A DNA stretch of 64,000 nt from an uncultured Christensenella sp. (GTDB lineage Bacteria; Bacillota; Clostridia; Christensenellales; UBA3700), in the NCBI GenBank assembly GCA_950079155.1, contig CATMWH010000003.1, positions 172,247 through 236,246 of the forward strand, read 5' to 3'. Shown here in pieces: positions 39,226-60,493 of this stretch (within the stretch, counting starts at the first letter, position 1; the number at the start of each line of letters is the position of its first letter). A program made the translations under genes and the position numbers. The notes under the pieces were generated by a model. The model was given only the letters and a program-made list of their open reading frames with translations, did no database searches and had not been told where the DNA came from.

Positions 39226-39301
<76 letters not shown>

Positions 39302-39307
39302 GTGTAA

Positions 39308-39340
39308 GGCACTCTCAAAGTTTTGAGAGTGTCACTTTTT
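39308..39340 (+). terminator. Terminator of element-borne tRNA
   Basis: ggcactctcaaa-gt-tttgagagtgtc then T-tract; homologous to 45572-45604. Confidence 0.8.
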
Positions 39341-39507
39341 ATACGCTAACACGGAGTTTTAATTATAAAGTAAAATCTTTATGCTATTGTCAATACAAAG
39401 TGCCCGAACACATTCTATGTGGATTTATGATTTAAAAAATAAATTTTTAAACTTGTTTCATTTGACTTAGTACTCAACTTGAGTAACTTAGAGGACTTTC
39501 TCATTTA

Positions 39508-39885
39508 TTAATCTTTATAATATTTTTGTTTGTACTCAATAAATTTTTCTTTATAAGTAGGACCATCTACTATACAATCGATTAAAATATGAAAAACTGT
39601 TTCAAGTCTATAATTTATGAGGTCTAATTCTTCAGGAGTAAAATCGTTGCTGACATCAGGAATCATTTTCAATAAACATATTAGGTCGTCTATAATCAAC
39701 GGACCAATTTTTCTAAATGGCACTTTTGAGAAAATAATATCAAGTGTATTAATTAGTTCAGTAGAGAAAAGTTTAGATATTTCTAATTCATCGTCACGTA
39801 GTGGCTTTTTATCTTCAACAATAGGTAGTTCATTTTCATACAAGGTATCTATTAATTCTTTAAAGTCTTTATTTTGTTTTTCCAT
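39508..39885 (-). CDS. Hypothetical protein (element cargo, third gene of operon)
   Basis: RBS gagg; acidic, helical-looking; no family recognised. Confidence 0.7.
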   Translation of the reverse strand: MEKQNKDFKELIDTLYENELPIVEDKKPLRDDELEISKLFSTELINTLDIIFSKVPFRKIGPLIIDDLICLLKMIPDVSNDFTPEELDLINYRLETVFHILIDCIVDGPTYKEKFIEYKQKYYKD

Positions 39886-39891
39886 TTTTGT

Positions 39892-40362
39892 TTACCTCAA
39901 TTTTGCATAATCTGGCATTGGCGGAGTTATTACAAATCCATCTTTTTCTTCTATTGGAATTTCGTGTTCTGGGTTTTCAAGATTCCATTGAACTATTGTA
40001 TAGTCCCACATTGTTGGTATTTTTGCCCCATTGTATTGTAAAGGTCCATGATAGGGGGGGGTCATAAACTTAATAAAGGCCTCGAGTTGACTTTTAGTAA
40101 ATTTACCACTTGACTTATCATGAATAAAATATTCAGATTTATCTAACTTAATACATATATTAAGTTCAGCGCCCATTGTTGAATCATCCCCAATATGGAC
40201 ATGTACTTGGGGAAATCCTTTATCACTTGTAGTAAAAACCTTAAGTCTGTCGCCTTTTGGTTTATTTTCTTTAATTTCTTGGAAATATCCTACAGTAGCC
40301 ATTTCAAAGACATAACCCTCTTTTTTCATTTGCTCAATTAATTCTTTTTCAACTCTATCCAT
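39892..40362 (-). CDS. Hypothetical cargo protein with leader MDRVEKEL...GYVFE-M; DUF4160-like HxH motif
   Basis: RBS aggaga; FPQVHVHI, EYFIH, QWNLENP, MPDYAKL. Confidence 0.7.
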   Translation of the reverse strand: MDRVEKELIEQMKKEGYVFEMATVGYFQEIKENKPKGDRLKVFTTSDKGFPQVHVHIGDDSTMGAELNICIKLDKSEYFIHDKSSGKFTKSQLEAFIKFMTPPYHGPLQYNGAKIPTMWDYTIVQWNLENPEHEIPIEEKDGFVITPPMPDYAKLR

Positions 40363-40378
40363 TTCAAAATTTCTCTCC

Positions 40379-40765
40379 TTAAATACTTTTCATATCAAAT
40401 ATGAAATCATAGATATCATAATCTTCATCCTGATTATAAAATTTGATTAGATTATCGTAGTTAAGGTTAATCCATTTTGATATGGGTTTCATATCCAATT
40501 TACCTTTTTTCAATTTACCAATGCAAGGGTAAATTTCCTGCTTTTCAAAAAAAGGAATAGTAATAAAGTCATCTGGATGTGGGCCATATTTTAGCCTATA
40601 AGGGTTATGTCCAACCTCTCTTTTTTCACCTAAATCATCTAACCAAACTTTATAAGGTAGTTTAGACCTTTTAGGTTGAATAGTTGACATTTCAAAGGCC
40701 GTTCCTTCAAAGGCATAACCCTCTTTCTTTAACTGCTTGTACAATTCTTTTTCAATTCTATCCAT
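40379..40765 (-). CDS. Hypothetical cargo protein with leader MDRIEKEL...GYAFEGTAFE-M
   Basis: RBS aaggag; LPYKVWLDD, GHNPYRLK, KWINLNYDNLIKFYN. Confidence 0.7.
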   Translation of the reverse strand: MDRIEKELYKQLKKEGYAFEGTAFEMSTIQPKRSKLPYKVWLDDLGEKREVGHNPYRLKYGPHPDDFITIPFFEKQEIYPCIGKLKKGKLDMKPISKWINLNYDNLIKFYNQDEDYDIYDFIFDMKSI

Positions 40766-40936
40766 TTTTATTTGGCTCCTTATTTTATATCAAAATTGGA
40801 AATCTTACCTTTCTTTGTGAACTCTATTGGCTCATATCCTGTACATTTCTTTTCTTGACATTTAGGTCAGTTTTGTGTGTCCATGGTTACTATATCACAT
40901 TTACATTGGATTTGATATAGATTATTAATGAAAAGT

Positions 40937-42361
40937 CTAAACATCCATTAAAAACTTGTTATAAATATCAGCGGCTTGTTTATCCTGTGATTTTAAAGCG
41001 TGAGTATAAATATCAAGTGTAATCCTCTCATTGGAGTGTCCAGCCCTTGTAGAAACCACTTTCAAAGGTACTCCAGCATTGAGTTGCATAGTAATACAAG
41101 TATGACGTAGAGAGTGTGGTGGTATGTGTTTAAAGCCGTGTTTTTGTTCAAACCCTTTCAACCAAGAGTTAACCGAACAGGGGTGTATAGGTTTCCCACT
41201 ATCCTGTAAGAATAGATAATCTGTATTTTCCCATAGGTCACCAAAGTTTTTCTTTTGTTCTTCATACCAAGATTTATATTCCAATAACATTATTAATAGT
41301 TGGTCAGGAATAGATATTGTTCTCTTGGAATGCTTTGATTTTGTTCCTTTTGTTACAATACCAAATTCCTTAAAATAAATATTATTATGGTTAATTGTTA
41401 AGGTGTGATTTTCAAAATCTATATCACTCCAACTCAACCCACATATCTCCGCTTTGCGTAACCCTAGAAAAATTGATAAAGAGAATATAATTTTTTTCTT
41501 GGGGTGGGGTTCGGTAAGAACGGCTTTTACAAATTCTCTTGTTTCTTGTTCATTGTATATTTCTTTTTCTTTGGTAGTACCTGTTATAGGTCTAGTGTAT
41601 TCTCTTGAAGCATAGTTGTGTTCAATTAGTTGTTGCCTTTTAGCCTCACCAAGAATAGTACCTAGTATAGTTTTTATCCCTGCGTTAGTAGATTTTGAAA
41701 ATTTAACTTCTTGTTTCTCTACATTAAAGTATTGATTAATGGGAACGTTAAAATGTTGGGATATTGCTTTGGCAGTTGATTTACTTACTTGATTACCTAC
41801 TTTAGAGGCAATGCGTAAAGTAAGTCGATTAATGCCACAATCATTTGCCACTTGAGTTTTGTTTAGATTTTTTGAATCAATCAACTCAAGTATAGATTTT
41901 TTCACGGATACTATTTCTTTGGTATAGGTCCTTTCACAAAGATAATCATAAAATCTTTGGATTATATTGGGTGTTATTTGATTTAATTTATAATTTCCTA
42001 AATAAGGATTGATTATTTCCAATGTATATTTCGACCTTACATAGTAAGAATAACTTTCCTCATTTCTCATTAAGATTCTTTCAAGCCATTTCTTGGAATA
42101 CTCTCCAAAGGTAATATTTGTTTCATAGATAAATGTACCATTGGATTTCTTTTCACATTCTTTTATGAACTCAATCTCATATTTCTTGCGTTCAAGTTCA
42201 ACCTGTTTATAGGGGAGTCCTTGGGGGACTTTCCAGGTTTTTGTATATTGTTTTGGTTGTCCTGTCAAAGGGTCTTTTCCACTATAAAAGAATCTATAAC
42301 TTATAATCTCACCCAATTTATTTTTTCTTGGATAACATAGTTTATTTTTGTTTTTACTCAT
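40937..42361 (-). CDS. int: Tyrosine integrase with internal XRE-like HTH insertion
   Basis: GLRKAEICGLSW (Arg I), TKS (Lys), HSLRH, RAGHS...TLDIYTH; arm-binding N-terminus (GKDPLTG). Confidence 0.93.
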   Translation of the reverse strand: MSKNKNKLCYPRKNKLGEIISYRFFYSGKDPLTGQPKQYTKTWKVPQGLPYKQVELERKKYEIEFIKECEKKSNGTFIYETNITFGEYSKKWLERILMRNEESYSYYVRSKYTLEIINPYLGNYKLNQITPNIIQRFYDYLCERTYTKEIVSVKKSILELIDSKNLNKTQVANDCGINRLTLRIASKVGNQVSKSTAKAISQHFNVPINQYFNVEKQEVKFSKSTNAGIKTILGTILGEAKRQQLIEHNYASREYTRPITGTTKEKEIYNEQETREFVKAVLTEPHPKKKIIFSLSIFLGLRKAEICGLSWSDIDFENHTLTINHNNIYFKEFGIVTKGTKSKHSKRTISIPDQLLIMLLEYKSWYEEQKKNFGDLWENTDYLFLQDSGKPIHPCSVNSWLKGFEQKHGFKHIPPHSLRHTCITMQLNAGVPLKVVSTRAGHSNERITLDIYTHALKSQDKQAADIYNKFLMDV

Positions 42362-42545: not shown

Positions 42546-43220
42546 TTACAATTTCCCATGTTTTATCGCAGCAATCAATGCTTTTCTTAATGATGCAACA
42601 GATACTCCACTCTCAACAGCAGCTTTTGGAAGTGACCAATTTTCATCAAATTTATAATTTATCCCAGAGTTAGTTTTGACAGTTTCATAAAGTGGTGAGT
42701 CACCTGCTACCTTAACATAGTATTTAACTGCGTCCTCTCTAACATAGTAATCTACAAGTGATATTGCGTCAATCCACTTTTGTTTATCAAGAGTAGCGTT
42801 TTGGGAACTTGTGGACTGCATTAACATATATTCGACAGGTAAATCCTTGAAGTTCTCCTCATACATTTTATAAGCGGACTTACCATTAAGCAATATGAGT
42901 TTAATATCAGTCTTATTTAATAAATCTTGTATGTTATTATAAACAGGATTTTTGATTGTGGAATCTTTTGAGCCCTCAATCTCACAAGCGTCAATTAAAT
43001 CCCAAACTGCAATATCATTATCTATTAATATTTTCACTTTTTCTTCATAGTCATTAGGTATAGGTACTCCAGAATATTTACAGATTACTTCCCAAAACCT
43101 ATTTCCATTATGGTCATAATAGTGACCACTTGTTCTACTTTTATCAGAGGGTATAGTACCTAAAATCAGTATTTTACTTAAAGAGGTAAATATTGGTTGT
43201 AAACCTTTAACTTTTGTCAT
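42546..43220 (-). CDS. Uracil-DNA glycosylase superfamily protein (deoxyinosine/MUG-like) with C-terminal extension
   Basis: ILILGTIPS...HYYDHNGNRFW, AVWD, GSKDSTI, LNGKSA, QSTSSQNA; about 65 extra C-terminal aa. Confidence 0.85.
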   Translation of the reverse strand: MTKVKGLQPIFTSLSKILILGTIPSDKSRTSGHYYDHNGNRFWEVICKYSGVPIPNDYEEKVKILIDNDIAVWDLIDACEIEGSKDSTIKNPVYNNIQDLLNKTDIKLILLNGKSAYKMYEENFKDLPVEYMLMQSTSSQNATLDKQKWIDAISLVDYYVREDAVKYYVKVAGDSPLYETVKTNSGINYKFDENWSLPKAAVESGVSVASLRKALIAAIKHGKL

Positions 43221-43416
43221 TTTGTTATACTCCTTATAGTGTTGTATGTAGATAGTATAACATATAAATTAACCATTGTGAAGTAATAATCACATTATAT
43301 GCCGATATTTTTCAAATACAATATACATAGAGTGTGATTTGAAGTAGTTAATGGTGTACCTAATAAATAATATCCAACCTTATAATTGAAGTGTATATAA
43401 ATTTGTGAGGTTTTTA

Positions 43417-43713
43417 ATGGATAAATTTGATATTATAGATCGCATAGGGTATTTTAGGACAAAAGCAAAACTATCTCAAAAAGCATTATCCATAGATATT
43501 GATATGAATGTTGGGTATATCAATAGGTTGGAGTGTAAGAAAGATTTTTTGCCAAGCCTTGAAGTTTTAATTAAAATTATAAAGGTATGTGGGATAACCG
43601 AAGAAGAATTTTTTTATAATGATTATATGAATTATGAGCAGGATAAACCAATAATTAATAAATTAAAAAACCTCCCTCAAGATAAGAGAGAGGCTTTAAT
43701 AAAACTCTTATAA
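43417..43713 (+). CDS. XRE-family HTH regulator
   Basis: RTKAKLSQKALS...YINRLE...PSLEVL...ITEEEFF; RBS gagg. Confidence 0.85.
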   Translation: MDKFDIIDRIGYFRTKAKLSQKALSIDIDMNVGYINRLECKKDFLPSLEVLIKIIKVCGITEEEFFYNDYMNYEQDKPIINKLKNLPQDKREALIKLL

Positions 43714-43716
43714 TAA

Positions 43717-44598
43717 TCAGAAATTGTTATCTATAAATTCTTTGGTTGTTCGGATAAAAACTCTATCCTTACAAAAGTCAAGGTCTGTAATCTTTTTGTT
43801 ATAAAATACGTGTTGGTCGATTCTTACAAATTTCCCCTTATTCTTACGATACAAATCATTATGATAGTCGATAATGTATTTAAGGTGTTCAGGTGTTATA
43901 TAGGTTTCTTCGTAAGAATTCTTATTAATCTTTGTGCCAAAGTTTTGACTGCTAGTAATTACCTTTGTACCCTTAAGAAAACAGGTCAAATGTGGGTTGT
44001 CTTTATTAAAATGTGGGTCTTTAAATCTTGTAATATACTGAATTCCACTTCTAATATCTTTAGTCCGCCTGTAATGACAAATACCTAGTTTCCATAAGTC
44101 CTCTATAATTTTTTTATTAATGGGTTTTGGAAAATCATTAAATTGTATTATAGAATGAATATGGAGTTTTTGAGTTTTCTTTTGTATTTCAATAGCACGT
44201 ACATACTCAACTTTACCATATCTCCTTTTTAAATATACTAAAAACCTATGGAACTGTTTATTTAGTTTTTGGTAATCCAAATCTTCTTTTAGTGTTAGGG
44301 TAATAAATATACACTTGCTTTCATCAAAATCCCTATCCCATAATTTCTTATGATAAGATTTAAGTAGTCTAACATAATCCTTGTAACTCATAAATTTATT
44401 TGCTAGTTTGTTAGTATTAGCTTTTGGTACAGGTTGTTTGAACTCCCTATCTTTAAATGGAATAAAGTCGTGTAATGTGATAGTCATTCGATTATCATTA
44501 TAAATACGGACTTTATATTTGGGTTTGTTTCCATTTTGAGTATTAAAGTTGTGACACTTCGTTATATTATTAGAATCAAGATATTGTATTTTATTCAT
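43717..44598 (-). CDS. Rolling-circle replication initiator (HUH endonuclease)
   Basis: Motif I FITLT, motif II LHIHSI preceded by EIQK, LWKLG, motif III-like YITRFK; RBS ggaggt. Confidence 0.75.
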   Translation of the reverse strand: MNKIQYLDSNNITKCHNFNTQNGNKPKYKVRIYNDNRMTITLHDFIPFKDREFKQPVPKANTNKLANKFMSYKDYVRLLKSYHKKLWDRDFDESKCIFITLTLKEDLDYQKLNKQFHRFLVYLKRRYGKVEYVRAIEIQKKTQKLHIHSIIQFNDFPKPINKKIIEDLWKLGICHYRRTKDIRSGIQYITRFKDPHFNKDNPHLTCFLKGTKVITSSQNFGTKINKNSYEETYITPEHLKYIIDYHNDLYRKNKGKFVRIDQHVFYNKKITDLDFCKDRVFIRTTKEFIDNNF

Positions 44599-44806
44599 TA
44601 TCATTACCTCCAGAAGTGTAGTTCAAATAATTCAATAGGTTGTCCAAATTCACAAGATATTTGTTACCTGATTTGAAGTGCTTGACCTTACCACTTTTAC
44701 ATAGTGACCTAATAAAGTTTTCAGTCACGGCTGTGTTGTTGTCTAATGATTTGATTTCCATTAAACATTGTTGGATAGTTCTTATCCTTGCTGTTATGTT
44801 TTGCAT
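44591..44806 (-). CDS. Excisionase-like DNA-binding protein
   Basis: 71 aa; RTI...TENFIRSLCKSGKVKHFKSGNKYLVNLD pattern; RBS ggagg. Confidence 0.75.
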   Translation of the reverse strand: MQNITARIRTIQQCLMEIKSLDNNTAVTENFIRSLCKSGKVKHFKSGNKYLVNLDNLLNYLNYTSGGNDNE

Positions 44807-44933
44807 ATTATTTCCTCCTAAAAAAATTAAATATAATAGTAAATAGAGTCTTAAATTTTAATTTGGATTGAAAATTTGACAAAATCTATATGAGTATGTA
44901 TAATTTTTATAAAATACATAGTTGGGTGTGGAT

Positions 44934-45362
44934 ATGGCGGAAAAACTAAATTCAAATGATTATAAGGTACTTGAGAACTTTGGTAATCAACTAAAATCAT
45001 TACTAAAAGAACTTAAATTAACACAAAAACAATTAGCTAAAGGTATAGATGTTAAACCATATACGGTATCTTTATGGGTTAATGGCAAGGTAAATATTAC
45101 TTTAACCAATTTATATAGTATTATAGATTTCTTTCACGATTCATATCCAGACTCTAATCCAGTATTAAGTATTCTTCCTGATTTTATAGGAAATGAATAT
45201 ACAAATATGTGGAAGAAACAACGGACCAATATATTAAATAGATTAAAGTCAACTTGTAAAAAATTAAATTATGATTTATTAAATGATTTAGGTATAAAGG
45301 ATTGGACTGATTTATTTGAGGACCCTTTAGAATATAAGATGAAGAAAATACTAAATAATTAA
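44934..45362 (+). CDS. XRE-family repressor divergent from xis-rep
   Basis: LKLTQKQLAKGIDVKPYTVSLWVNGK HTH. Confidence 0.8.
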   Translation: MAEKLNSNDYKVLENFGNQLKSLLKELKLTQKQLAKGIDVKPYTVSLWVNGKVNITLTNLYSIIDFFHDSYPDSNPVLSILPDFIGNEYTNMWKKQRTNILNRLKSTCKKLNYDLLNDLGIKDWTDLFEDPLEYKMKKILNN

Positions 45363-45522: not shown

Positions 45523-45567
<45 letters not shown>

Positions 45568-45571
45568 TTAG

Positions 45572-45604
45572 GACACTCTCAAGGAATTGAGAGTGTCGCT
45601 TTTT
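45572..45604 (+). terminator. Host tRNA-Thr terminator
   Basis: gacactctcaa-ggaa-ttgagagtgtc then T-tract. Confidence 0.8.
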
Positions 45605-45817
45605 AACTGCAAACGCGGACAGCCCAAATTTGTGACGTTCGTACGAGACGCTCCGCTTTGACTGCATTAGATTGATTAGATTTACTAGAGATAGTTATAT
45701 GCGGAGGCAAAAAAGAAGCGTCACAAAATCAAAGAGTTGATAAAAATAGAGACAAGGTGTTATACTTTGTCTTTTATTGTTAAAATAAATAAATTTTTGA
45801 CTGATTTATCGCTTTGG

Positions 45818-45875: not shown

Positions 45876-46400
45876 GTGAAAACATTAAACGTCAGTAAAA
45901 TAAATAGATATCTTACAAGTATTAAGAAGGGGACATTAAGTAGTCTAACTAAGTTATTTAAATATACGTATTCTAATTTATATTGCGTAGCGTTCGCATA
46001 TGTAAGAAATAAAAATGACGTTGAGGATGTTTTAAGTCATGCGTATGAAAATGCTGTAAGATACATTCATACTTTTGACAAAACTATGAATGGGTATAAT
46101 TGGCTCTATACAATAGTTAAAAATTGCGCAAAAGAGTTTAACAAACAAGAATCCAAGAGACAGAAAGTAGTTTGTGATATTGACGAAGAAAGAGAAGATG
46201 AATTTGAGATTTTGGATCATATTGTATTAAAAGTGGCAATAAATTCACTTTCAGACCAAGATAAGAAACTTTTGTATCAAATATATTGGGAAGGTTGGAC
46301 AGTGAAAGAAATTGCGAGAGTATCCGGCGTTCCAATGACGACTATTTACAGCCGATTGGGGAGTATTTATAAAAAGTTGCGAGAATTCTATAAAGAGTAG
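45876..46400 (+). CDS. ECF RNA polymerase sigma factor
   Basis: DVEDVLSHAY, NWLYTIVKN, region 4 WTVKEIARVSGVPMTTIYSRL. Confidence 0.88.
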   Translation: MKTLNVSKINRYLTSIKKGTLSSLTKLFKYTYSNLYCVAFAYVRNKNDVEDVLSHAYENAVRYIHTFDKTMNGYNWLYTIVKNCAKEFNKQESKRQKVVCDIDEEREDEFEILDHIVLKVAINSLSDQDKKLLYQIYWEGWTVKEIARVSGVPMTTIYSRLGSIYKKLREFYKE

Positions 46401-46429
46401 TCGTAATTTGGTCAGAGAGTGACACTATA
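46400..46429 (+). promoter_or_regulatory. Candidate ECF promoter 1
   Basis: gtCGTAATtt...ACACTA, identical 20-nt offset to the copy at 48171/48191. Confidence 0.55.
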
Positions 46430-46468
46430 CATACATAGATAAGTAAACGAATAAAAAGGAGAGAATAA

Positions 46469-47341
46469 ATGAGGAAGATTTTTAGCAATGCAAAATTAGT
46501 ATTGATGTTGTCAATATGTGCGCTTATGATTGCGTCGATAAGCATTATAGTTATTGCGCCATCAATGATTATTGAAGCGCAAGCAAATGCGCTTAACGTA
46601 AGCAGCGTTGAAAAGTATTATTTCACACCTCAAACGATATCGTCTAGGTCTAACTCGCAAGAACGCATTGAGTATACGTCCTATAAAGTGGCGCTTGATA
46701 ATGAGATCTTGACTCCGCTATATTATAATTTAGATTCTAGTCTCATAAATGTTTGTGGAGCAGTAGCAGGCGCAAACTTAATAGGTTATTATGATATTGA
46801 ATATACAAATCTTATACCTAATTATGATTCTGCAATAATACGCAGTGGAAAAAAGATTTTTAAGTCAGTAAGTACTAATACTCAAAACGTAATCAACAAT
46901 TTATATGTAAAAATGAATACAAATGCTACGGGAGTGGGGGTTACATATGGTCAATTTATAAACGGATTGACGTCTAATGTAAACGAGGCAGGATATAGCG
47001 CAACTATAGATGAGTGTGTTTCTAATGGACAGATCAGCGTAAATACGATAAAGAATAATATCGAAAATGGAATTCCTATGGTATGTTTTTGTACAATGTC
47101 ATATTATATAAATAATATTAGCATTGGTTCAAGCGAAACGACGTTGACCAAAGTAGATTATCAAGCGAATCACATTATGGTTGTCAACGGAATAAAACAA
47201 GTGGCATATTTTCAAAACGGCGAAAACTTTAGGACGGATACTTATCTTAAAGTTGCGTCGGGGTTGCAAGAAAATGTAAGCGCATATATTTTGTTATCAT
47301 CAATTGTTTTGGATAATATGAAAACGGTAGCGATAAATTAA
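46469..47341 (+). CDS. Secreted C39-like (papain-fold) peptidase
   Basis: Signal peptide; NVCGAVAGANLIGYYD (Cys), NHIMVVNG (His). Confidence 0.7.
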   Translation: MRKIFSNAKLVLMLSICALMIASISIIVIAPSMIIEAQANALNVSSVEKYYFTPQTISSRSNSQERIEYTSYKVALDNEILTPLYYNLDSSLINVCGAVAGANLIGYYDIEYTNLIPNYDSAIIRSGKKIFKSVSTNTQNVINNLYVKMNTNATGVGVTYGQFINGLTSNVNEAGYSATIDECVSNGQISVNTIKNNIENGIPMVCFCTMSYYINNISIGSSETTLTKVDYQANHIMVVNGIKQVAYFQNGENFRTDTYLKVASGLQENVSAYILLSSIVLDNMKTVAIN

Positions 47342-47350
47342 GGTGTAGAA

Positions 47351-48085
47351 ATGAGAAAATCAAAGTTAGATAAATTAATACAAACAAAAAAAGATAAGAA
47401 AGAACTCAATTATTCTGTATTAGACAAAGCAAAAGAGGCATTGAGTGAGCAAAAAAGACTAAAAAAATCAAGAACAAGTTTTCAGTGGAAAGGATTTGCT
47501 AAAATTTTGGTTCCGGCTTGTTGCGTGTTAATAATTGTTATTGTCGCTTGTGTTGTATTCTATCATCCGGCAGAAGATGATTCTTCTTTACCGCCTGTAA
47601 TAGACGCTCCCAAACCGGATGAGAAGCCTGACGATAGTGATGAAAAACATTTTGGCTCTTCTGAAAATAATCAACGTAATATACAATCCATAGAGTCTTT
47701 CAACAAAGAAAAGAATATTTCATTGCGATACTTCAGTTTGGAAAACATTGAAGAAACTATCATTATTCATGAGGACGTGGAAAACACAAAAGATAAAGAC
47801 GTGTTGTTGTGGCAAAGAATACTTTTGTTGGAAACTTATGAAGAAATCAAAATGTATATCGAGTTGCAAGGCGGCTATATATTTGACTTTTTGGATAGAT
47901 TTGAAAATCTCGGGCAGAAGCTAGAAATAAAAGGTACAGTCGTGAATTATGATACATTCTTTGACGAGGAGCAATATTTATTCTGTACAAGAACAAGCTT
48001 TGAGATTGGCGGATTCAATTATAAAGTAGAATTTTTCTTAGAAGACCAAGAGCAGTGGTGTTCTTATCTAGAGGAAATTTTATAA
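47351..48085 (+). CDS. Single-pass membrane protein, probable anti-sigma factor
   Basis: Short basic N-domain, TM helix, Pro/Asp linker, extracellular domain; in ECF locus. Confidence 0.55.
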   Translation: MRKSKLDKLIQTKKDKKELNYSVLDKAKEALSEQKRLKKSRTSFQWKGFAKILVPACCVLIIVIVACVVFYHPAEDDSSLPPVIDAPKPDEKPDDSDEKHFGSSENNQRNIQSIESFNKEKNISLRYFSLENIEETIIIHEDVENTKDKDVLLWQRILLLETYEEIKMYIELQGGYIFDFLDRFENLGQKLEIKGTVVNYDTFFDEEQYLFCTRTSFEIGGFNYKVEFFLEDQEQWCSYLEEIL

Positions 48086-48168
48086 TAGATTTGCAATGAG
48101 TAGGGGAAATAATAAATATTTAAAGAGAACACTTGCAATGTAAAGTTTAAGTAAAATTTTAATACAGT

Positions 48169-48199
48169 GTCGTAATTTTGTCAAGTTACAACACTAAAC
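48169..48199 (+). promoter_or_regulatory. Candidate ECF promoter 2
   Basis: gtCGTAATttt...ACACTA upstream of the large surface-protein operon. Confidence 0.55.
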
Positions 48200-48269
48200 A
48201 CTAATGAGAAAAGAAAATGAGGAAGAATTTTTTAATTTAGCACAGCTAAAGAAGGAGATTGAAAAACTT

Positions 48270-51200
48270 ATGAAGACACTTATTTCATTAGTATTGACTT
48301 TTATAATGTCATTGACTTCGACATCAATATTTTGGACTTCGGTGGATTTTGAGAAATTGAATTCAGTTGATAGTGGTGTTAAAGAAACGCCTGTTGCTTA
48401 TATTGAAAACGATGATTACGTGCCATATCAATATCGCAATTATACGCAAGATGATACTACAACAAGGGAATATTTAGATTTCAATCTAAATACAGAGTTT
48501 GAGACAGTATTTAAGACGATTACAGTAATGACAACCGCAACCGGCGATCCCAAACGTGGGAATTACGTGGCAAGTAAACCGATAGCCGATGCTCTTGTGC
48601 GTGTGGACGGAGTGCCGAGATATACTGATAGCAAAGGGCAGATTACTGCGCCTTTGAATAGGGAATACGTAGAGCTTTATGTTGAGTATAGCGGATACAA
48701 TCCATATATAGAAATTATAGAGGCGACTGAGGAGCAGAAAACTGTATATCTCAAACAGCCAAGCGATGATATAGAGATTATAGACGTAATGTTTAATCTT
48801 CAAGGATACGTCTTTAATATTATGTTGCAGCCTTGCTATTATTTGAAAGGGCAGATGGAGACTGCAGCTCTATTAGAAGTACATTCAAATGTAGAGTATG
48901 ACTACATATTGTTTTATGTAAATGGACAGTTAGATAGAATAGGATTTGATGATATTCTGTTTACAGAAGATGATCTAAACGATTATGACGTAGACGATGA
49001 ATTTGCCGTTAGCATATCTTATAATGGAATAGATTCAAAACTCGTTGAATTGAATTTAAGAATCGAAGTGTTTGATGGTAGTGATATGAAAGCTCAAATG
49101 AAGTCTGCTTTAATTGATAACTGTGACTACAACTTGGGTACAGAGATGGATGACCCTTTGGGAATAGGTAGCATAGGAGCGGTAACAGTTGGCAAAACGC
49201 AAATTCTAGAACTAATTCTAGAATCTATCTTTTTTGCAGACCCTGAAGATAATTGGAGTTTTAATGTAGATATTGGCGTATTAAGTTTTAGTTTTACGTT
49301 TGACAGATATAGTGGCACTATCAAATTTCTAGGCGGATTAAAATTCGATTTAAAAAAGCCGATTATGAATAAATTAAAAAAAGATGCGGCAAACGGCAAA
49401 AACGATTACAAAAACGCGGCTAAAAACAGCGGTCAGCAGCAGGCGGAAGAAGATGCTTTTGACGCAATAAGCGATTATAATGAAAAACTAGGCAATTATA
49501 ATAACTTGAAAGAACAAGAAAATGTAGCAAAAGAGGTGATGGACAAAGCTAAGCAAGAACTAGAAGCTGCAGAGGAAAGAAAGGCGCAAGGTCAAAGTTG
49601 GAAAAAAAGCGATGGATATCGCACTTTCAGAGATGAGCAAGGTAGATTTATTTCTACAATAGATGGATTGACAAAAGAGTATAGCGCTGCTCAAGAGCAA
49701 TATAATAAAATTCATAATACGGTAGAAAATCTAAGTAATACTTTAGATAATCCCGTTGATAATACGCCGAGCGCTAATAGTCAGTCAGGACCAAGCAAAT
49801 TTCAGACTATTCTGGATTATTTGACAAATATTGATGGAATTACAAATCAGATACAAAAATTGAAAAACTTTTTTGATTCGGGTAGTCTCGGCACTCCGGG
49901 TTTTGATTGGAGTTTGGATTTTTCGGTATTGGCATCAATAGAATCATCGTACAGAACGGGGGAACTACTGCATTTCTCAGTTTATACTGAATTATCTTTT
50001 AAGCCATCGTATACTTGGATATTTACAGTGTCGCTTCCTCCTGTTATTCCTGTACTGCCTATGTTTGTTACAATACAAGGCGATTTGCATGCTAAAGCAG
50101 AGACTATTATGGTAGATGATAAAAACGGAGTAAATCTTACTTTTGCTGAAGCTTTGAAACAAATTGAAATACTTATAGGCTTCTATGTAAGAGTAGATTT
50201 CGCAGCAGGTCTAAAAGGAGTTTTTTCCGGCGGATTATTTGGGAAAATTGGTTTGGATATGTATTTTTCTCCTGAAATTAAAGCTAAATTCATATGGGAT
50301 GTAGGATTTAAGGCACAGTTTTTAATGTTTGAAAGGGAATTTTCAATAAAACCTGCTGCGATTATTATTGATGAAAAAGGCTTTCATGTTGAAGGGGCTG
50401 ATAATTACAGTTTACTTAGTCGGGTAAAATCAAATACAGTGAATATTAGTGATAATCAGTTATTTGATAGGATGTATCAGTCATCTCAACCTCAAATGAT
50501 CAAACTAAATGACGGAAGGAGTATTTTATTTTGGATAGAGGACGATATTGAGAGAGATGATTATAATAGATATGTGTTGAAGTATTCTATACTTAACAAT
50601 GATATATGGAGTCAACCTCAAGCGGTAATAAATGACGGAATGGCGGATTATGATTACGACGTATATTCTGACGGAATAGACGTGTACGTTGCTATACAAC
50701 GTACTAACAGAATAATTACAGAATATGATCAAATGGACAACGTAATTGAGACACTTGATATCTTCGTAGCAAAATTTAATAACAGCGATAATGTTTTTGG
50801 TGACATCGTGCAAATTACCAATGATGATAGTTATCAGTCCAATCCTCAATTCGCGGTAAGTTCTTCAGAAGTTGTCTTGACTTGGAGAACGAATACTCAA
50901 AATGATTATTTTGGCTTAACAGGAGAGAATTTAATTTGTTCAACTACTTTATTAAATGGGAATTGGGGCGATATAAAAGAACGATATAGGAATTCTGCAA
51001 TGTTGTATAATTACTCTTCAGCATTTGACGATGGGAATTTTACTCTAGCGGTATGTGAAACTTTGGATGGTAGTGTATTAGCTTCTGATACTGTATTGCG
51101 TGTGACAAAAAATCAAAGCGAGGTGTTTGTCAAGGAAAAAGTCATGAATGCTAAGTTTATTTCTTTGCCATCTGGGATGTCATTGTTATATTCTGACGAA

Positions 51201-52202
51201 GAGAATTTAAAGGTTACATCAGATTTTGTAAATATAAATACTGTAGTTTCTAATTTTGCTTCCCAAAATTTCAATATTGGGAAAACTTCGGATATACCAA
51301 CGATATTTTATGATTCTTATGACGGTAATTTAAGCAAGGGGTATTGCGCATTGTATCTTGACGGAGATTGGGTAGAGAATATTGTTGTCACTGATGAGAT
51401 TAAGGAAGATTACGTTATCTCTGCCTTGACAGGATATTATGAAGACGGTGTGATTTATTCTGCATATAATTATAATAAGCAAGATAGTGAAGATCTTGAT
51501 GCAGGGATTGCGCTATGTGTCGCAAATCACGATATGGGGTATAAAATATATACGGAGGCTTACACTTCTGAGAGAGTTATTGACGGAATACAATCTGATA
51601 TAAGGCTTTACGTAAAGAATGTTGGGGACTTTGTAATAAAAAAGTTTAAAGTGAAAATATGCAATCAGGATTTTGAGATTGTTTGCAATCAAGCGTTGAG
51701 GATAGGAGAGGGAAAATATTTTACAGTATCTTTTATTCCGCATTTGAATGAGTCCTCTTATTTGACTGTCACTACAGTAATTGAGGGCAGGGATGAAGTA
51801 GAATTGGCAAAAGATGAGTGTAAAATACTTGTTAAATACACTGATTTAGACGTAGATTTCTCTAGGAATATATCAAATGGAAAACAACATTTTGAGGTAA
51901 GCATTAAGAACGTGTCAGATATAGATACTAGTTTTGATATTACGGTATATGTCAATGGAGAAATCAACCGGAAAATGTCAAGGAAATTAAATGCCTTTGA
52001 TGAATGCATGTATGACTTCACTTTTGATGAAATCGCTGAAGGGGATTATATATTTATAGAGGTTGTAGCTATGGAGAAAGAATTTAGTATCATTGACAAT
52101 TCAAAAGGTTATTATTCTCTGCGTACTGAAAAGTTGCAACCGCCTGAAGTGGAAAATCCTTATCAAAATATTTTAAAAAATATAAAGGCTTTAGTGAGTT
52201 GA
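48270..52202 (+). CDS. Large secreted protein (Ig-like N-terminus, coiled-coil insert, beta-rich C-terminus)
   Basis: RBS aaggag before ATG 48270; signal peptide; YTDSKGQ Ig-like motif; central helical segment. Confidence 0.75.
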   Translation: MKTLISLVLTFIMSLTSTSIFWTSVDFEKLNSVDSGVKETPVAYIENDDYVPYQYRNYTQDDTTTREYLDFNLNTEFETVFKTITVMTTATGDPKRGNYVASKPIADALVRVDGVPRYTDSKGQITAPLNREYVELYVEYSGYNPYIEIIEATEEQKTVYLKQPSDDIEIIDVMFNLQGYVFNIMLQPCYYLKGQMETAALLEVHSNVEYDYILFYVNGQLDRIGFDDILFTEDDLNDYDVDDEFAVSISYNGIDSKLVELNLRIEVFDGSDMKAQMKSALIDNCDYNLGTEMDDPLGIGSIGAVTVGKTQILELILESIFFADPEDNWSFNVDIGVLSFSFTFDRYSGTIKFLGGLKFDLKKPIMNKLKKDAANGKNDYKNAAKNSGQQQAEEDAFDAISDYNEKLGNYNNLKEQENVAKEVMDKAKQELEAAEERKAQGQSWKKSDGYRTFRDEQGRFISTIDGLTKEYSAAQEQYNKIHNTVENLSNTLDNPVDNTPSANSQSGPSKFQTILDYLTNIDGITNQIQKLKNFFDSGSLGTPGFDWSLDFSVLASIESSYRTGELLHFSVYTELSFKPSYTWIFTVSLPPVIPVLPMFVTIQGDLHAKAETIMVDDKNGVNLTFAEALKQIEILIGFYVRVDFAAGLKGVFSGGLFGKIGLDMYFSPEIKAKFIWDVGFKAQFLMFEREFSIKPAAIIIDEKGFHVEGADNYSLLSRVKSNTVNISDNQLFDRMYQSSQPQMIKLNDGRSILFWIEDDIERDDYNRYVLKYSILNNDIWSQPQAVINDGMADYDYDVYSDGIDVYVAIQRTNRIITEYDQMDNVIETLDIFVAKFNNSDNVFGDIVQITNDDSYQSNPQFAVSSSEVVLTWRTNTQNDYFGLTGENLICSTTLLNGNWGDIKERYRNSAMLYNYSSAFDDGNFTLAVCETLDGSVLASDTVLRVTKNQSEVFVKEKVMNAKFISLPSGMSLLYSDEENLKVTSDFVNINTVVSNFASQNFNIGKTSDIPTIFYDSYDGNLSKGYCALYLDGDWVENIVVTDEIKEDYVISALTGYYEDGVIYSAYNYNKQDSEDLDAGIALCVANHDMGYKIYTEAYTSERVIDGIQSDIRLYVKNVGDFVIKKFKVKICNQDFEIVCNQALRIGEGKYFTVSFIPHLNESSYLTVTTVIEGRDEVELAKDECKILVKYTDLDVDFSRNISNGKQHFEVSIKNVSDIDTSFDITVYVNGEINRKMSRKLNAFDECMYDFTFDEIAEGDYIFIEVVAMEKEFSIIDNSKGYYSLRTEKLQPPEVENPYQNILKNIKALVS

Positions 52203-52203
52203 T

Positions 52204-52797
52204 ATGAAAAATGATAACAAAAAAGAAAAGAATGCACGGCATTATGATATCGGATCAATATTAGTGACATTGTTACTATACGCCATATTCGGTACTGTGT
52301 ACGGAGTATTGTTATGGGGGTGGATAAAAACATGCGACCAAGTGCACGGCGAATATAAAGCTATTGAAAGTGGAGTAATAGTAGATGCGGAATTAAATGA
52401 TATTTACTCAACTGTTGATAGAAGCAGTAATGGTATGAAAGTGCGATATGACGTAATATATGAATATATAGATGGAGATATAAGATATCATGGTATAGCG
52501 GTTTATGAAGTAAACGAATATTATGAGGCAGAAAAATATTTGGGTAAAAAAATAAAAATATATATTGACGGTAAGGGGCATAGTCTTCCTGTAGGCAGCA
52601 AGCCTAAATTGTTAACTGTAACAATAGCAACAGTATTTGTAGTGGTATTGTTTTATCCAATGCTTTTTTGGCCTTTGCTATTAAAGCAAATAAGCAAGCG
52701 CCAAAAAAAAAGGCAGGCAAAGAGAGAGCAAGGTAATTGTCAGGGGAGTATGTTTTTCCCTTATATTAAACCGAATGATAACGACAACAAAAAGTAA
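52204..52797 (+). CDS. Two-TM membrane protein (DUF3592-like)
   Basis: TM - beta domain (YDVIYEYIDG...GKKIKIY) - TM. Confidence 0.6.
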   Translation: MKNDNKKEKNARHYDIGSILVTLLLYAIFGTVYGVLLWGWIKTCDQVHGEYKAIESGVIVDAELNDIYSTVDRSSNGMKVRYDVIYEYIDGDIRYHGIAVYEVNEYYEAEKYLGKKIKIYIDGKGHSLPVGSKPKLLTVTIATVFVVVLFYPMLFWPLLLKQISKRQKKRQAKREQGNCQGSMFFPYIKPNDNDNKK

Positions 52798-52851
52798 TAG
52801 AGAATTATCGCAGAAGATGAAGTAATGTGAGATAAGAGAAAATAGAAAGAA

Positions 52852-53640
52852 ATGAGTAATGGTATACAAATAAGAAAAAAGCAAATAGTCATAATAATTA
52901 CAGCGCTTGTCGTTTTATTGGCAACGGGCTTGACTTGCGCAATTGTCTTTTGGCCAAGAGAGAAAAAGTTGACTACGCAAGAGTGGCTAGATGCTTTTAG
53001 TGAAAGTCTCGATTATGCGACAATGACAAAGGATGAGGACGGCAACGCCTTGGAAACATATATAGCGCGGGAGATTGAAATCAAAGAAATAGAAGACGTG
53101 GTGGTAAAGTTCAAGCAGACTTTGCAAATTGCCATTGCAGAAGACGGACAAGCTGCGGCATATTTGGCGATTGAAGAAAATTATCCCACGTTGGAAGAGT
53201 CAAAAGACGATCTTATGGATGAGTATTATTTGTGTCAAGGCAAGATGTATACTCGCAGAGAAAAAGGTGGGAAAGTGCAGTCGTCAAGTTTTGATTCCAA
53301 TTTGGATATTCTTTTGACGGTTGCGTCGGAAAATTTGGGCAACGCTCAATATAATTTTGAGGAAGATAACTTTTTGCCCGTTGAGAATGGAAAAGGAATC
53401 ATAGCACACGATGGCAATACTCATCAAATAAATGCAATGATAAGCCAAGACAAGTATAATAAGTTTTTTGGCAAAGACGCAAATATTGACGGAATGAGCG
53501 AAGTCAAAATACAAATGCAGATGACAGATAGACGTTTTGATTGGTTGCAAATTCAATACAAACAAGGCGACTTAAGTTCTATGATAAAAATTACAAGATA
53601 CGATATTCAACCCGTGGCAACGCCGGAATGGGCGAGATAG
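52852..53640 (+). CDS. Membrane-anchored hypothetical protein
   Basis: N-terminal TM, acidic beta-rich ectodomain ending PEWAR. Confidence 0.65.
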   Translation: MSNGIQIRKKQIVIIITALVVLLATGLTCAIVFWPREKKLTTQEWLDAFSESLDYATMTKDEDGNALETYIAREIEIKEIEDVVVKFKQTLQIAIAEDGQAAAYLAIEENYPTLEESKDDLMDEYYLCQGKMYTRREKGGKVQSSSFDSNLDILLTVASENLGNAQYNFEEDNFLPVENGKGIIAHDGNTHQINAMISQDKYNKFFGKDANIDGMSEVKIQMQMTDRRFDWLQIQYKQGDLSSMIKITRYDIQPVATPEWAR

Positions 53641-53651
53641 AGAGGTAACTT

Positions 53652-56600
53652 ATGATAAAGGCAAAAAACAAAAGTTTAGTTCAATACATAATAATCCTAG
53701 CTGTAATTTTGGTTATGGCAACAATTTGCGCGACTTTTTTAAGTACATCGACTGCGTCCGCTAAGTCGGATTTCAGTCAAGGGACAGGTACGGAAGAAAA
53801 TCCGTTTGTCGTGACAACGGTAAAGGAATTTAATGCTATTGCCACAAGACTTGACGCATATTTTGTTCAGGGCGCAAACATTGATTTTACAGGCGAAGAG
53901 TTTTATCCGATTGGAGACCTTACGCATCCATTCACAGGTCACTATGATGGCAATCAATATTTATTGACAGGTATCAATGCGTATTGTCCCAACAAAGACA
54001 ACGTGGGTGTTTTTTCCTTCATATATAAAGGCGGAGTAGTCAAGAACGTAAGAGTGGAAAATTCAACGTTTATAGGCAATCAGAACGTCGGCGCAATTGC
54101 AGGAATGAACGCAGGTAGAATCGAAGGCGCCGTTGCTAATTCTGATGTCACTTCCAACACTAATGCCGCAGGCGGAGTAGTAGGCGCAAATTCGGGTTAT
54201 ATCAGTTGTTCTGTCAACTCAGGCAACGTCAAGGCCTTAGGTATGTATGCCGGGGGTATAAGCGGAGTCAATACAGGTAATATTTCTGACATATATAATA
54301 AAGGAAGTGTCAGCGCGCAGACTTATGTTGGAGGAATCGCCGGTTTGAACAACGGAAAGAGTAGCAAAGCGGTGATTGAGCGCGCTTTTCAAGTAGGCGA
54401 AGTCAGCGGTAACGTCAGGGGCAATGTCTCGGGCGATAATATGAATGCGTCAATCAAGCAATGTCGCTATATACAGGGCTCGGATATTAAGGCAATTTCT
54501 GCGTTTAATTCAGGCGGTAACATAATGGCTTGTATCGCAAGGCCCGCATATGAATTCAAAACAAAGTCTGCTTTTTCAGATTGGATAGGCTTTGAAAATA
54601 ATTTTATGTTCGTTGCCGACGTCAATCATCCCATACTCAGAGCGGAGTACGTCAAGGTGTCAGGCATTGAGTTTGGCGCAGGCAAATCAATTAAACTTCG
54701 TCCGGGAGACGAATTGGAGTTAGGAGCATACGTTACCCCTTCTCATGCAAGCGTACAAAAAATTAAGCTTGATATTAATTCCGGCGGCGAACTCTGTTTG
54801 TTGACCGATGGCGTTATCAAAATCAAAAATGACGCGCAAGTCGGTTCATTTATCACAGTTGTCGGCGAAGCCGAGGGTGTGGTAGGTCTTACTCAAATAG
54901 AGATAGTACCTATTCGGGTAGAAAGCATAGAACTAATGTCCAATGATAATCGAGAAACTGTCGTTCCCGGAGCGCAGTTACAATTAAGTACAAAGATATA
55001 TCCCAACAATGCGTCAATTAAAGATGTGCGATATACTTCGTCTAATAGCTTGGCTGATATAGACGCCGACGGAGTTTTGAGAGTATCTCAAGATGCGCCC
55101 GTGGGATTGATTTTCACAGTCACGGCTTCGTCTTATGACAATATCAGTATAAGCGATGTAATGACCTTTACCGTTATTGAAGCGCAAGTCAAGTCGGTAG
55201 ACGTTACCAATACCGTTACTGACTTTAAAGTAACAGGTAGTCTAAATCTTATGGGATTGGCAGTCACCGAGAGCTTAACTACCGATGAAGTAGAATTTGA
55301 AATAATACCTGAAAAAACTACAGCCGAAGGCGCAAGAATAGTAGGCGGTAAGTTGTATGCAGATTTACCGGGGGAGATAAGTGTCTTTGCGCGCTATGCG
55401 GGAGCAAACAGCGAACCGGTCGTATTTGTTGCAAAGGAAGAGCCGGTCACTAGCATAGAATTTTTGAATAACAATTCATTCCCAATCAATCAAGCGCTCA
55501 ATATCATTGCTCTGGCTTTACCGGATTATGCGACTTTCAGAGACGTTACGCTTACGCTTGTAGGCGGAGAGAATACAGGAGCAATGCTTAATGGCAATAT
55601 ATTGACGGCTGAATCCACAGGTATGATAACGATACGCGCAGAAGCGAGCGGCGTGTATGCGACGATAACAGTATATGCAGAACCCGCAAGCGAAGTTGAC
55701 GTTGACGTAACAGGTATCTCGCTTGCCAAGGATTCTTATTTGTTGACGCGTACGTTGACGCTTGTTCCTGTCATCGAGCCGAGTAATGCGCAAGCAGCCG
55801 TTTATTTTGAGATTGTCAGCGACGGCGGTACCGGGGTTGAACTTGTCAACGGCAAACTTCAAAATGCAAAAAGACCCGGTTTGATTCTTTTGTGCGCATA
55901 TACTTCTAAGTTTAGAACTTACGTTACGGTAGAAGCGCAAAAAGTAGAAGTTGAAAATGTATATTTTACAAACGTCAACAGATTTAAGATAACGAAGTCT
56001 CTTGCGCTAAACGTGGCTACCAATCCTGCAAATCCAACGTATCCGGAGGTCAATTATCAAATAATTTCAGCTACTGCCAACGGCGCAGATATTTCAAACG
56101 GAATTTTGACTGCGCAGAGCGTGGGTGAAATCGTATTGCGCGCCTGGGTCGACGGGGTGCCGTCAAGCGAATTCAAGGTGTATGCGGACAAAGAGCCTGT
56201 CACAGACGTGCGTTTTACTTCGTCTAGCAAGTCATTTAAGCATACGGAAAGTCTTATACTCGAAGCGATGGCATTGCCTATGCAGGCTACATATAAGAAC
56301 GTAGAATTCCATATAGATGAAAGCGGAACGACTGATGGAATTGAAGCAAACATCAATAACGGTAATGTGCTCACCGCAAAGGCGCCGGGTGTCGTTACGG
56401 TAATTATGAGTTGCGATGGACACGATTATCCCGTGATAATCTCGGTTGATAAAGAGCCTGTTATTGGCGTAAGCGAATTAGAGACTAGATTGTGGACGAA
56501 AAATACCTTGGAAACCGAGTTTAAGACAAGCGGTATTCTAGAACTTACAGCATACGTTTATCCTTTTAATGCGACTTATCAAAATATTGAGATATCTATC

Positions 56601-58640: not shown

Positions 58641-58674
58641 CAAACAAATAAATTATAATAACTTGGAGGTTAAA

Positions 58675-60453: not shown

Positions 60454-60493
60454 TCTATTTGAAAATAAAAAGAAAAATACTTAAGGAAAAAAG

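Follow-up and report, generated by a model that had tools for sequence, protein, structure and literature searches.

The three internal proteins of bacteriophage T4, Ip1-3, are described as having only an N-terminal leader in common, which targets them for packaging into the capsid, and related phages are described as encoding many more proteins of this kind; all three T4 proteins are reported to inhibit GmrSD restriction enzymes (PMC12373910). The T4 leader, or capsid-targeting sequence (CTS), is given as 10-19 residues long, with positions 4 and 7 serving in targeting and positions 8 and 10 in processing, and it is cut after a Glu residue (PMC9026906). For giant phages, cuts have been reported at AXE or SXE motifs, often at several sites, and also at TFE, and the diverged paralogues gp53 and gp54 are described as having identical N-termini (PMC5694885). 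Here, we analysed a 64,000-nucleotide stretch of DNA from an uncultured Christensenella sp. (contig CATMWH010000003.1; hereafter, the window), in which a small integrated element carries an operon of three genes, B, A and gene 3, closely spaced on the minus strand in the list of open reading frames (ORFs). The proteins A and B share a leader of about 20 residues, ending in Glu and followed by Met, and have otherwise dissimilar bodies. Our tentative reading, to which we assign a probability of roughly 40%, is that counter-defence cargo here bears a leader that is capsid-targeting or propeptide-like.

A BLASTP comparison of A and B returned a single alignment, covering residues 1-20 with 15 of 20 positions identical (E=5e-8); the next had E=3.8. 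At the DNA level, a repeat search gave a match of 62 nucleotides (nt) with 82% identity (40303-40364 versus 40706-40767), which runs from 2 nt 5' of the ATG as far as the Glu codon. Eight of the 20 leader codons differ between the two genes, three of them synonymously and the other five with mostly conservative replacements. When the two families were compared by hhalign (n=7 for A, n=15 for B), the aligned part was again limited to the leader and the EM(A/S)TV that follows it (24 columns, probability 92%). On these alignments, the similarity of the leaders is not due to chance. The original prediction, made by a model from the letters of the window, had pointed to a leader of this length on dissimilar bodies, and this description holds. 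It had also noticed a duplicated gcctttgaa in the leader of B; the duplication was confirmed and produces two Ala-Phe-Glu motifs in tandem, of which B orthologues carry a single copy.

Comparison with other sequences supports the leader being a transferable module, as the original prediction had proposed: it is found on at least eight body types, its types are exchangeable and some bodies occur without it. A profile of the leader alone (29 positions), searched against 1.84 billion representative proteins at E<=1e-3, found it attached to diverse bodies, with seven matches, all from residue 1: two proteins with the body termed D, two with further helical bodies, a short A-like protein, a fragment of B and one unassigned fragment. 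In the genome to which the window belongs, the leader matched only A and B. Related elements have arrays of four to five consecutive leader-bearing genes. The array of L009, a contig from a Clostridiales metagenome-assembled genome (MAG), codes for bodies B, A, C (163 residues) and D (134 residues), and each of its four leaders ends in AYE-M. In L007, five consecutive genes begin with an M[RKS]FIKE-like sequence and include B and a short A-like body, with junctions LME-M and LIE-Q; the array is followed by a tyrosine integrase and a replication initiator (Rep) resembling those of the window. A cluster of the L007 type adjoins a large serine recombinase in L006 and L008, and L010 has the same leader on body C and on one that is DUF3293-like, ending in ATE-T and ANE-S. 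Two leader types can be told apart, MD.IEKEL... and ME(F/M)(V/I)DK.INE.LN.EL..., and each of them occurs on A, B and D bodies. Moreover, the leader of B from the window is identical at 16 of 20 positions to the leader of P0023, which has a D body, and at 11 of 20 to that of its own orthologue P0009, the full-length identity with this orthologue being 79%. These sequence comparisons show that leaders have been exchanged among bodies. Bodies without a leader are C-like in L017 and in the viral contig L021, and A-like in the phage G002. A and B are shown to be members of a set of unrelated small phage-type accessory proteins.

A cassette in this family of elements consists, in order, of a ribosome-binding site (RBS), a translated amphipathic leader of 11-25 residues, Ala-(Tyr/Phe)-Glu-Met and the body. 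Numbering the junction as for a protease site, P1 is Glu in 36 of 37 junctions, P1' is Met in 33, and 32 have Tyr or Phe at P2; across the 37, P3 is Ala in 25, Val, Leu and Ser in two each, Ile in one and another residue in the remaining five. The third base of the codon for the junction Ala varies between genes, which points to a constraint on the protein. A GGAG-type site, mostly AAGGAG, lies about 7-12 nt 5' of the leader ATG in all 14 genes checked, and none of the eight examples examined has an RBS 5' of the junction Met; the junction Met is therefore no hidden start codon. An internal translation start at this position was rejected for this reason, and also because some junctions have Thr, Ser, Gln or Ile there. 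Judged by these features of the genes, the leader is translated. In the leader of A, Leu8-Ile9-Glu10 is present besides Val-Phe-Glu20.

The junction is also retained after a whole domain: in L017, a KptA/Tpt1 domain (Pfam E=4e-43) runs through PPFE-M into a B body. Since the junction is kept behind whole domains, the arrangement is polyprotein-like. L017 (G281:C10, 479-2802, minus strand) belongs to a higher-G+C genome of the same order, and its operon comprises the leaderless C-like gene, a gene for a 147-residue protein with a leader ending in ...QPFYE-M and a B-like start, the gene for the fusion of the KptA/Tpt1 RNA 2'-phosphotransferase to B and, last, a gene for a 336-residue protein with an N-terminal domain, an internal copy of the second leader type and a body resembling S-adenosylmethionine (SAM) lyases. 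In L016 (RHMF01115762.1, 157-1428), a 256-residue protein is formed by two tandem A-like bodies, with LLE-M (recognised by eye) and then MYE-M, and the preceding ORF codes for a further A-like protein with the start MLYE-M; together, the L016 proteins look like a polyprotein. In L007 (4670-6800), the RBS and first codons of successive cassettes (TAAGGAGATAA.T.AAAG ATG ...TTTATTAAAGAA) are near-identical DNA, a pattern that suggests gene conversion or cassette shuffling.

Families were gathered from 5.8 billion clustered proteins, which gave seven clusters for A and 15 for B. In both alignments the body is well conserved and the N-terminal 16-25 residues differ in length as well as sequence, but these variable leaders always run into a near-invariant E-M-A-T-V-G in A or (A)-(Y/F)-E-M-S-T-(V/I)-Q-P-K-R-S in B. 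His motifs seen in both bodies by the original prediction were confirmed. In the extended A family (11 sequences), H54, H56, C70, L73, D74, E77, Y78, F79 and H81 are invariant, and this signature, H-x-H...C..LD..EYF.H, suggests a metal site. The B family has no H-x-H; its motifs are STxQPKRS, WLDD, HNP, KWINLNYD and EDYD, the His of HNP being nearly invariant. AlphaFold2 models of A and B, with a predicted local distance difference test (pLDDT) score of 70 and 75, respectively, have four strands plus helices in each body, and the leaders form a low-confidence helix over residues 3-14 (pLDDT about 50) followed by a disordered linker; the leader is predicted from these models to lie outside the folded body.

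Foldseek searches of the PDB with the models of A and B gave no match at E<=0.001, a wide VIA-align search reached best Z values of 3.9 (A) and 4.4 (B), and sequence-profile searches of the PDB with bodies A, B, C and D had best E values of 0.45, 0.2, 0.075 and 0.023. Two structural candidates were discarded: colicin N as the fold of B (VIA Z 4.4) is below the level expected by chance, and a likeness of A to the uracil-DNA-glycosylase inhibitor Ugi (Foldseek E=2.6-2.9, template-modelling score 0.25) is at noise level, despite the presence of a uracil-DNA glycosylase (UDG) family gene in the element. No meaningful match for A, B or gene 3 was found in Pfam, PHROG, PADLOC or NCBIfam, and PADLOC-DB 2.0 gave no family at E<=1 for any of the three. 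The ESM Atlas clusters nearest to B are mostly viral, which is a lead only. A metagenome scan recovered one 1.4-kb contig for A and 0 of 596 stretches for B; the B family is present in one of 400 other genomes of the order, and A and B are found apart from each other in some loci.

The genes for A, B and gene 3 are cargo of a plasmid-like element integrated at a tRNA-Thr gene (Table 1). Between its repeats the element measures 6.27 kb, the three genes lying at its tRNA-Thr end, and its G+C content is 0.28-0.33, compared with 0.39-0.43 upstream. In a tblastn search, the Rep matched four small rolling-circle plasmids of 1.5-2.5 kb (27-31% identity) and no phage record. In 21 of 22 congeners (other genomes of the genus), the element is not present and only the tRNA and its flanks are found. 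The remaining congener, G409 (L036, G409:C17, about 1030-1823), carries decayed remains of a related element at this tRNA-Thr; they lack A and B, and a 59-residue fragment of gene 3 in them directly abuts the last 85 or so codons of an integrase. The integrase of L009, a close relative of that of the window, stands beside the L009 leader array. A gene of the UDG superfamily accompanies leader arrays in two related elements, that of the window and that of L009 (4141-4812), where it follows the array and matches at E=0.003, below the cut-off; it may serve in repair of the replicon or in counter-defence, both roles being conceivable. Just outside the element (45876-62371), the window codes for an extracytoplasmic function (ECF)-type sigma factor and very large proteins of 1332, 1662, 606 and 625 residues, with Big_2 and GLUG motifs and a Gly-rich repeat of 9-nt periodicity at 58059-58510; these large proteins are probably surface proteins, unrelated to the finding on the leader.

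Table 1. Features of the leader-bearing operon and of the integrated element that carries it (window coordinates)
Feature	Coordinates	Strand	Description
Gene B	40379-40765	-	128 residues; N-terminus MDRIEKELYKQLKKEGYAFEGTAFE-MST
Leader of B, codons 1-25	40691-40765	-	5-codon duplication, giving two Ala-Phe-Glu motifs
Body of B, residues 26-128	40379-40690	-	From Met26; motifs STxQPKRS, WLDD, HNP, KWINLNYD and EDYD
Gene A	39892-40362	-	156 residues; N-terminus MDRVEKELIEQMKKEGYVFE-MAT; 16 nt past B
Leader of A, codons 1-20	40303-40362	-	MDRVEKELIEQMKKEGYVFE; predicted helix 3-14 plus linker; ends in Val-Phe-Glu
Body of A, residues 21-156	39892-40302	-	From Met21; conserved H-x-H...C..LD..EYF.H; distant relatives in large phages
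Gene 3	39508-39885	-	125 residues, isoelectric point 4.6 (acidic), no leader; last gene of the operon; 6 nt past A
tRNA-Thr (GGT), integration target	39226-39301	+	ARAGORN
attL, left 45-nt direct repeat	39257-39301	+	Equals the 3' 45 nt of the tRNA; exact repeat D4
Hairpin and T-run right after the tRNA	39305-39355	+	Repeat D3; 78%-identical copy at 45569-45619, past the right repeat
Tyrosine integrase	40937-42361	-	Pfam Phage_integrase E=5.4e-26, Phage_int_SAM_3 E=2.1e-11
UDG superfamily protein	42546-43220	-	Pfam UDG E=1e-7
Helix-turn-helix (HTH) regulator	43405-43713	+	Pfam HTH_3 E=3e-6
Rolling-circle replication initiator-like protein (Rep)	43717-44604	-	Pfam REP_ORF2-G2P E=9.9e-13
Second HTH regulator	44922-45362	+	Pfam HTH_3 E=8.7e-10
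attR, right 45-nt direct repeat, end of the element	45523-45567	+	Exact repeat D4

Phages have relatives of several bodies. Those of A are distant, at 25-26% identity, and were found in G002, a phage complete at 166 kb, and in G001, a jumbo-phage fragment of 80 kb; those of C are in the 126.6-kb phage G403, where the leader ends in LDE-S, and in a tail-module fragment of 10 kb, in which an F-like gene is present as well. Both G002 and G403 encode a Peptidase_S77, the family of T4 gp21, with 30 and 47 bits, respectively, at a cut-off of 27. In G001 (L011, 757-2775), the products of two adjacent genes are 77% identical over about 60 N-terminal residues and diverge from there on; the first of them has an A-like body after HLE-M, and a paralogue of the middle part of the second lies just upstream. 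The 10-kb viral contig L021 has, at 3075-4982, a run of four small genes with baseplate-like genes on one side and tail-fibre-like genes on the other; their products have a common N-terminus of the MK(K/R)YI type, which may represent another leader type inside a phage tail module, and C-like and F-like bodies are among them. The protein gp141 of Bacillus phage G, a candidate relative of A (tblastn E=0.7), has none of the A-family motifs and was dismissed as a chance match.

A link to counter-defence comes from the last protein of the L017 operon, residues 183-291 of which match Pfam S-AdoMet_lyase (PF23780; E=1e-8, 35.6 bits at a cut-off of 28). This body is homologous to a leader-bearing 188-residue protein of L007 (E=2e-5), for which the Pfam S-AdoMet_lyase match was not reached directly. 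Phage SAM lyases act against restriction. Among the products of genes adjoining the arrays are an EcoRI-like methylase, an HNH protein, a ResIII helicase, a TIR protein and UDG-like proteins. In L006 (3203-4327), a 374-residue protein with a C-terminal HNH is encoded beside the EcoRI-like methylase, just upstream of the leader array; its N-terminus appears DUF262/ParB-like by eye, which would make it GmrSD-like, and has no Pfam match. Because there is no PADLOC match, because bodies occur in phage genomes and because one leader body is SAM-lyase-like, the evidence leans towards counter-defence cargo of phage origin and away from the anti-phage toxin that the original prediction had also considered.

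We take the leader to be a head-targeting propeptide because its architecture is that of the T4 internal proteins. It would act like the CTS of these proteins and dock the cargo at the core of the assembling head of an exploited phage, where a Glu-specific prohead protease of the T4 gp21 type would remove it after the Glu. The body, beginning at Met21 in A or at Met26 in B, would then enter the next cell along with the DNA and act there as a counter-defence factor, and gene 3 would code for an additional, leaderless cargo protein. What is established here is the modular anatomy; we infer from it the targeting and cleavage, the protease and helper phage involved, and what A, B and gene 3 do. 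A more specific and, in our view, unlikely scenario is that a tiny non-viral replicon tags its counter-defence proteins with a mimic of the CTS of its helper, so that the helper protease processes them and helper virions carry both the element and the proteins. If true, this would be a satellite that hitch-hikes by way of its proteins, and its exchangeable leader could be redirected towards other helpers.

[quoted passage not shown] Searches of the element, of the genome around it and of five further genomes with arrays found no such protease, capsid gene or tagged head protein. Several observations weigh against a head-targeting propeptide. Genes for a capsid, a scaffold or a protease are absent from the element, and a 6.3-kb rolling-circle replicon with a plasmid-like Rep is no obvious phage satellite. 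Peptidase_S77 (PF03420) was not found in the genome of the window (95.8% complete) or in five array-bearing genomes, in a search whose control families matched in 0 of 14 genomes and which did detect the family in the two phages. No head protein was found to carry the leader: all seven profile matches are small cargo proteins, the genome of the window offered no such protein, and the N-terminal 34 residues of B gave no match at E<=10 in a tblastn search of 50,697 GenBank phage records. A search of 2.9 million viral contigs found no close homologue of A or B, only the relatives of A at 25-26% identity mentioned above, and a viral scan for B recovered 0 of 100 stretches. The A-like gene of G002 is without the Glu junction, and the leader of the C gene of G403 occurs in no other ORF of that phage. 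Moreover, the Tyr or Phe at P2 and the Met at P1' are stricter than the loose motifs of prohead proteases, and so strict a junction could reflect a different protease or a binding motif. Finally, the case for cleavage and packaging rests wholly on sequence.

The leader might instead stay in place, as a docking or regulatory helix that, together with A-(Y/F)-E-M, binds one common partner, such as a chaperone or adaptor, the machinery for transfer or secretion that belongs to a mobiliser of the element, a host target or the cargo proteins themselves. The helix is indeed amphipathic, with conserved hydrophobic positions 4, 8 and 12; leaders within an array are more alike than orthologous leaders, as expected if they co-evolve with a single partner; the junction, with its four residues, exceeds the known motifs of prohead proteases in specificity; and no protease was found in the host genomes. 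This explanation is nevertheless doubtful, as no partner candidate is conserved with the arrays (gene 3 is missing from those of L009, L007 and L017), the junction is kept after unrelated whole domains that lack the helix, as in the KptA-B fusion, and phages have bodies without the leader. Cleavage, for its part, could serve defence, if the leader silences a toxic body until a phage prohead protease frees it and infection is aborted, with gene 3 as a possible antidote. The Glu of the junction, conserved in 36 of 37 cases, is in line with such a trigger, CBASS (cyclic oligonucleotide-based antiphage signalling system) has been reported to sense prohead proteases (PMC12991175), and the genes lie in the cargo region of a mobile element, with defence-type genes adjoining in relatives. 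Against this, A, B and gene 3 have no PADLOC match, toxin-like fold or toxin-like family, phages have genes of their own for bodies A, C and F, two of them together with an S77 protease, and the SAM-lyase-like body would have a counter-defence activity; four or five different pro-toxins without cognate antidotes would also be unusual, and we regard a defensive role of this kind as quite unlikely. It is also conceivable that the peptide has no function and that the common RBS and leader are kept as homology for the shuffling of cassettes. The near-identical 5' ends of the L007 cassettes and the reassortment of leader types among bodies could be explained in this manner. We consider this very unlikely. 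In the window, the similarity extends only from 2 nt before the ATG to the Glu codon, and three of the eight leader codons that differ between A and B do so synonymously; in leaders that diverge widely in sequence and length, the helix pattern is preserved, as is the terminal A-(Y/F)-E-M, with third bases that vary.

Least probable of all, and in our judgement highly improbable, is a toxin-antitoxin or DUF4160-type module in which A, B or both would have gene 3 as partner. The original prediction had likened the bodies to DUF4160 proteins (PF13711), and A resembles these in being small and in having H-x-H after a beta-strand near the start of the domain; in the ESM Atlas, DUF4160-containing clusters were reached at 0.85-0.86 for A and B, below the lead threshold of 0.9, with the family on 16-17% of their members. 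This resemblance was not upheld. No DUF4160 match at E<=1 was obtained by hmmscan for A, B or four A-like relatives, and an hhalign comparison with five genuine DUF4160 proteins gave a probability of 5.9% over 15 columns around H-x-H for the A family and of 0.2% for the B family. Close members of the A family have P-x-x-H-x-H (PQVHVH) and its distant relatives P-H-x-H, and A differs from DUF4160 in the additional invariant C70, LD, EYF and H81 and in a C-terminal part of about 70 residues. As for gene 3, which had been proposed as a partner or antitoxin, the evidence does not speak either way: it forms a separate, narrow family of five clusters, conserved over its full length and without a leader. 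Gene 3 is not beside A or B in L009, L007, L008 or L017, a scan of genome contigs for it recovered 0 of 141 stretches, and suspected relationships to body D of L009 and to the fifth array gene of L007 were rejected for want of similarity. A and B, moreover, also occur separately, and neither a known toxin or antitoxin family nor a conserved adjacent partner, as would mark a type II toxin-antitoxin system, was found.

If the leader is a targeting propeptide, it would represent, to our knowledge, the first internal-protein-like system known outside large lytic phages, with small integrative elements as its carriers and gut Firmicutes as their hosts. The leader would then be a compact, portable capsid-loading tag of about 20 residues plus A-(Y/F)-E-M, its cargo a catalogue of at least eight uncharacterised families as counter-defence candidates, and head proteins or proteases that match the tag could reveal the helper phages. 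Whatever the role of the leader, the cassettes illustrate cleanly how mobile elements can evolve by modules, with a shared translated leader, a strict junction, shuffling and fusions that keep the junction.

The element itself resembles known small integrative (mobilisable) elements that integrate at tRNA genes and have a rolling-circle Rep or relaxase, in its 45-nt repeat of the tRNA 3' end, tyrosine integrase and Rep_1/G2P-like initiator, as well as in its HTH regulators, low G+C content and patchy distribution; we know of no leader-tagged cargo arrays on elements of this type. Within the limited literature searches made, no paper describing arrays of leader-tagged cargo on integrative elements was found, and the papers listed for 'capsid targeting sequence' concern T4, P1, P22, giant phages and the engineering of T4. 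The closest likeness is to the internal proteins Ip1-3 of T4-like phages, which, as far as the published accounts describe them, are small proteins encoded side by side in a variable locus and alike only in a short leader (PMC12373910, PMC9026906, PMC3012670). In both cases a Glu closes the leader and is preceded, at a distance of two positions, by an aliphatic or small residue, and Leu8-x-Glu10 in A coincides with the processing positions of the IPIII CTS; in both, the bodies are diverse, those of T4 being described as injected anti-restriction proteins. The carrier differs, being here a 6.3-kb plasmid-like element of MAGs of gut Clostridia type, without head genes or a prohead protease, and so does the leader, which is longer than the T4 CTS (mostly 16-25 residues), with the stricter A-(Y/F)-E-M; the two are likened by architecture.

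The propeptides on ejection and head proteins of the giant phages phiKZ, 201phi2-1 and SPN3US, as described, are similar in having Glu at AXE or SXE, multiple sites (B of the window has two AFE) and common N-termini, and G001, with its A-like body, shows the same pattern; in contrast to the leader studied here, they are mostly longer than 100 residues and belong to the phage's own virion proteins. The concept of loading proteins into a head and injecting them is also that of the MuF-type polymorphic toxins of temperate phages. It is likewise found in the Dar system of phage P1, whose accessory proteins are reported to be packaged in heads and injected with the DNA (PMC12810830). Dar and MuF proteins differ in being large and in being incorporated via head-protein domains, not via an exchangeable leader of 20 residues. 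The logic of a shared leader on diverse bodies is familiar. What is new is the carrier and its clade, as well as the leader with its junction motif, and the uncharacterised body families number at least eight.

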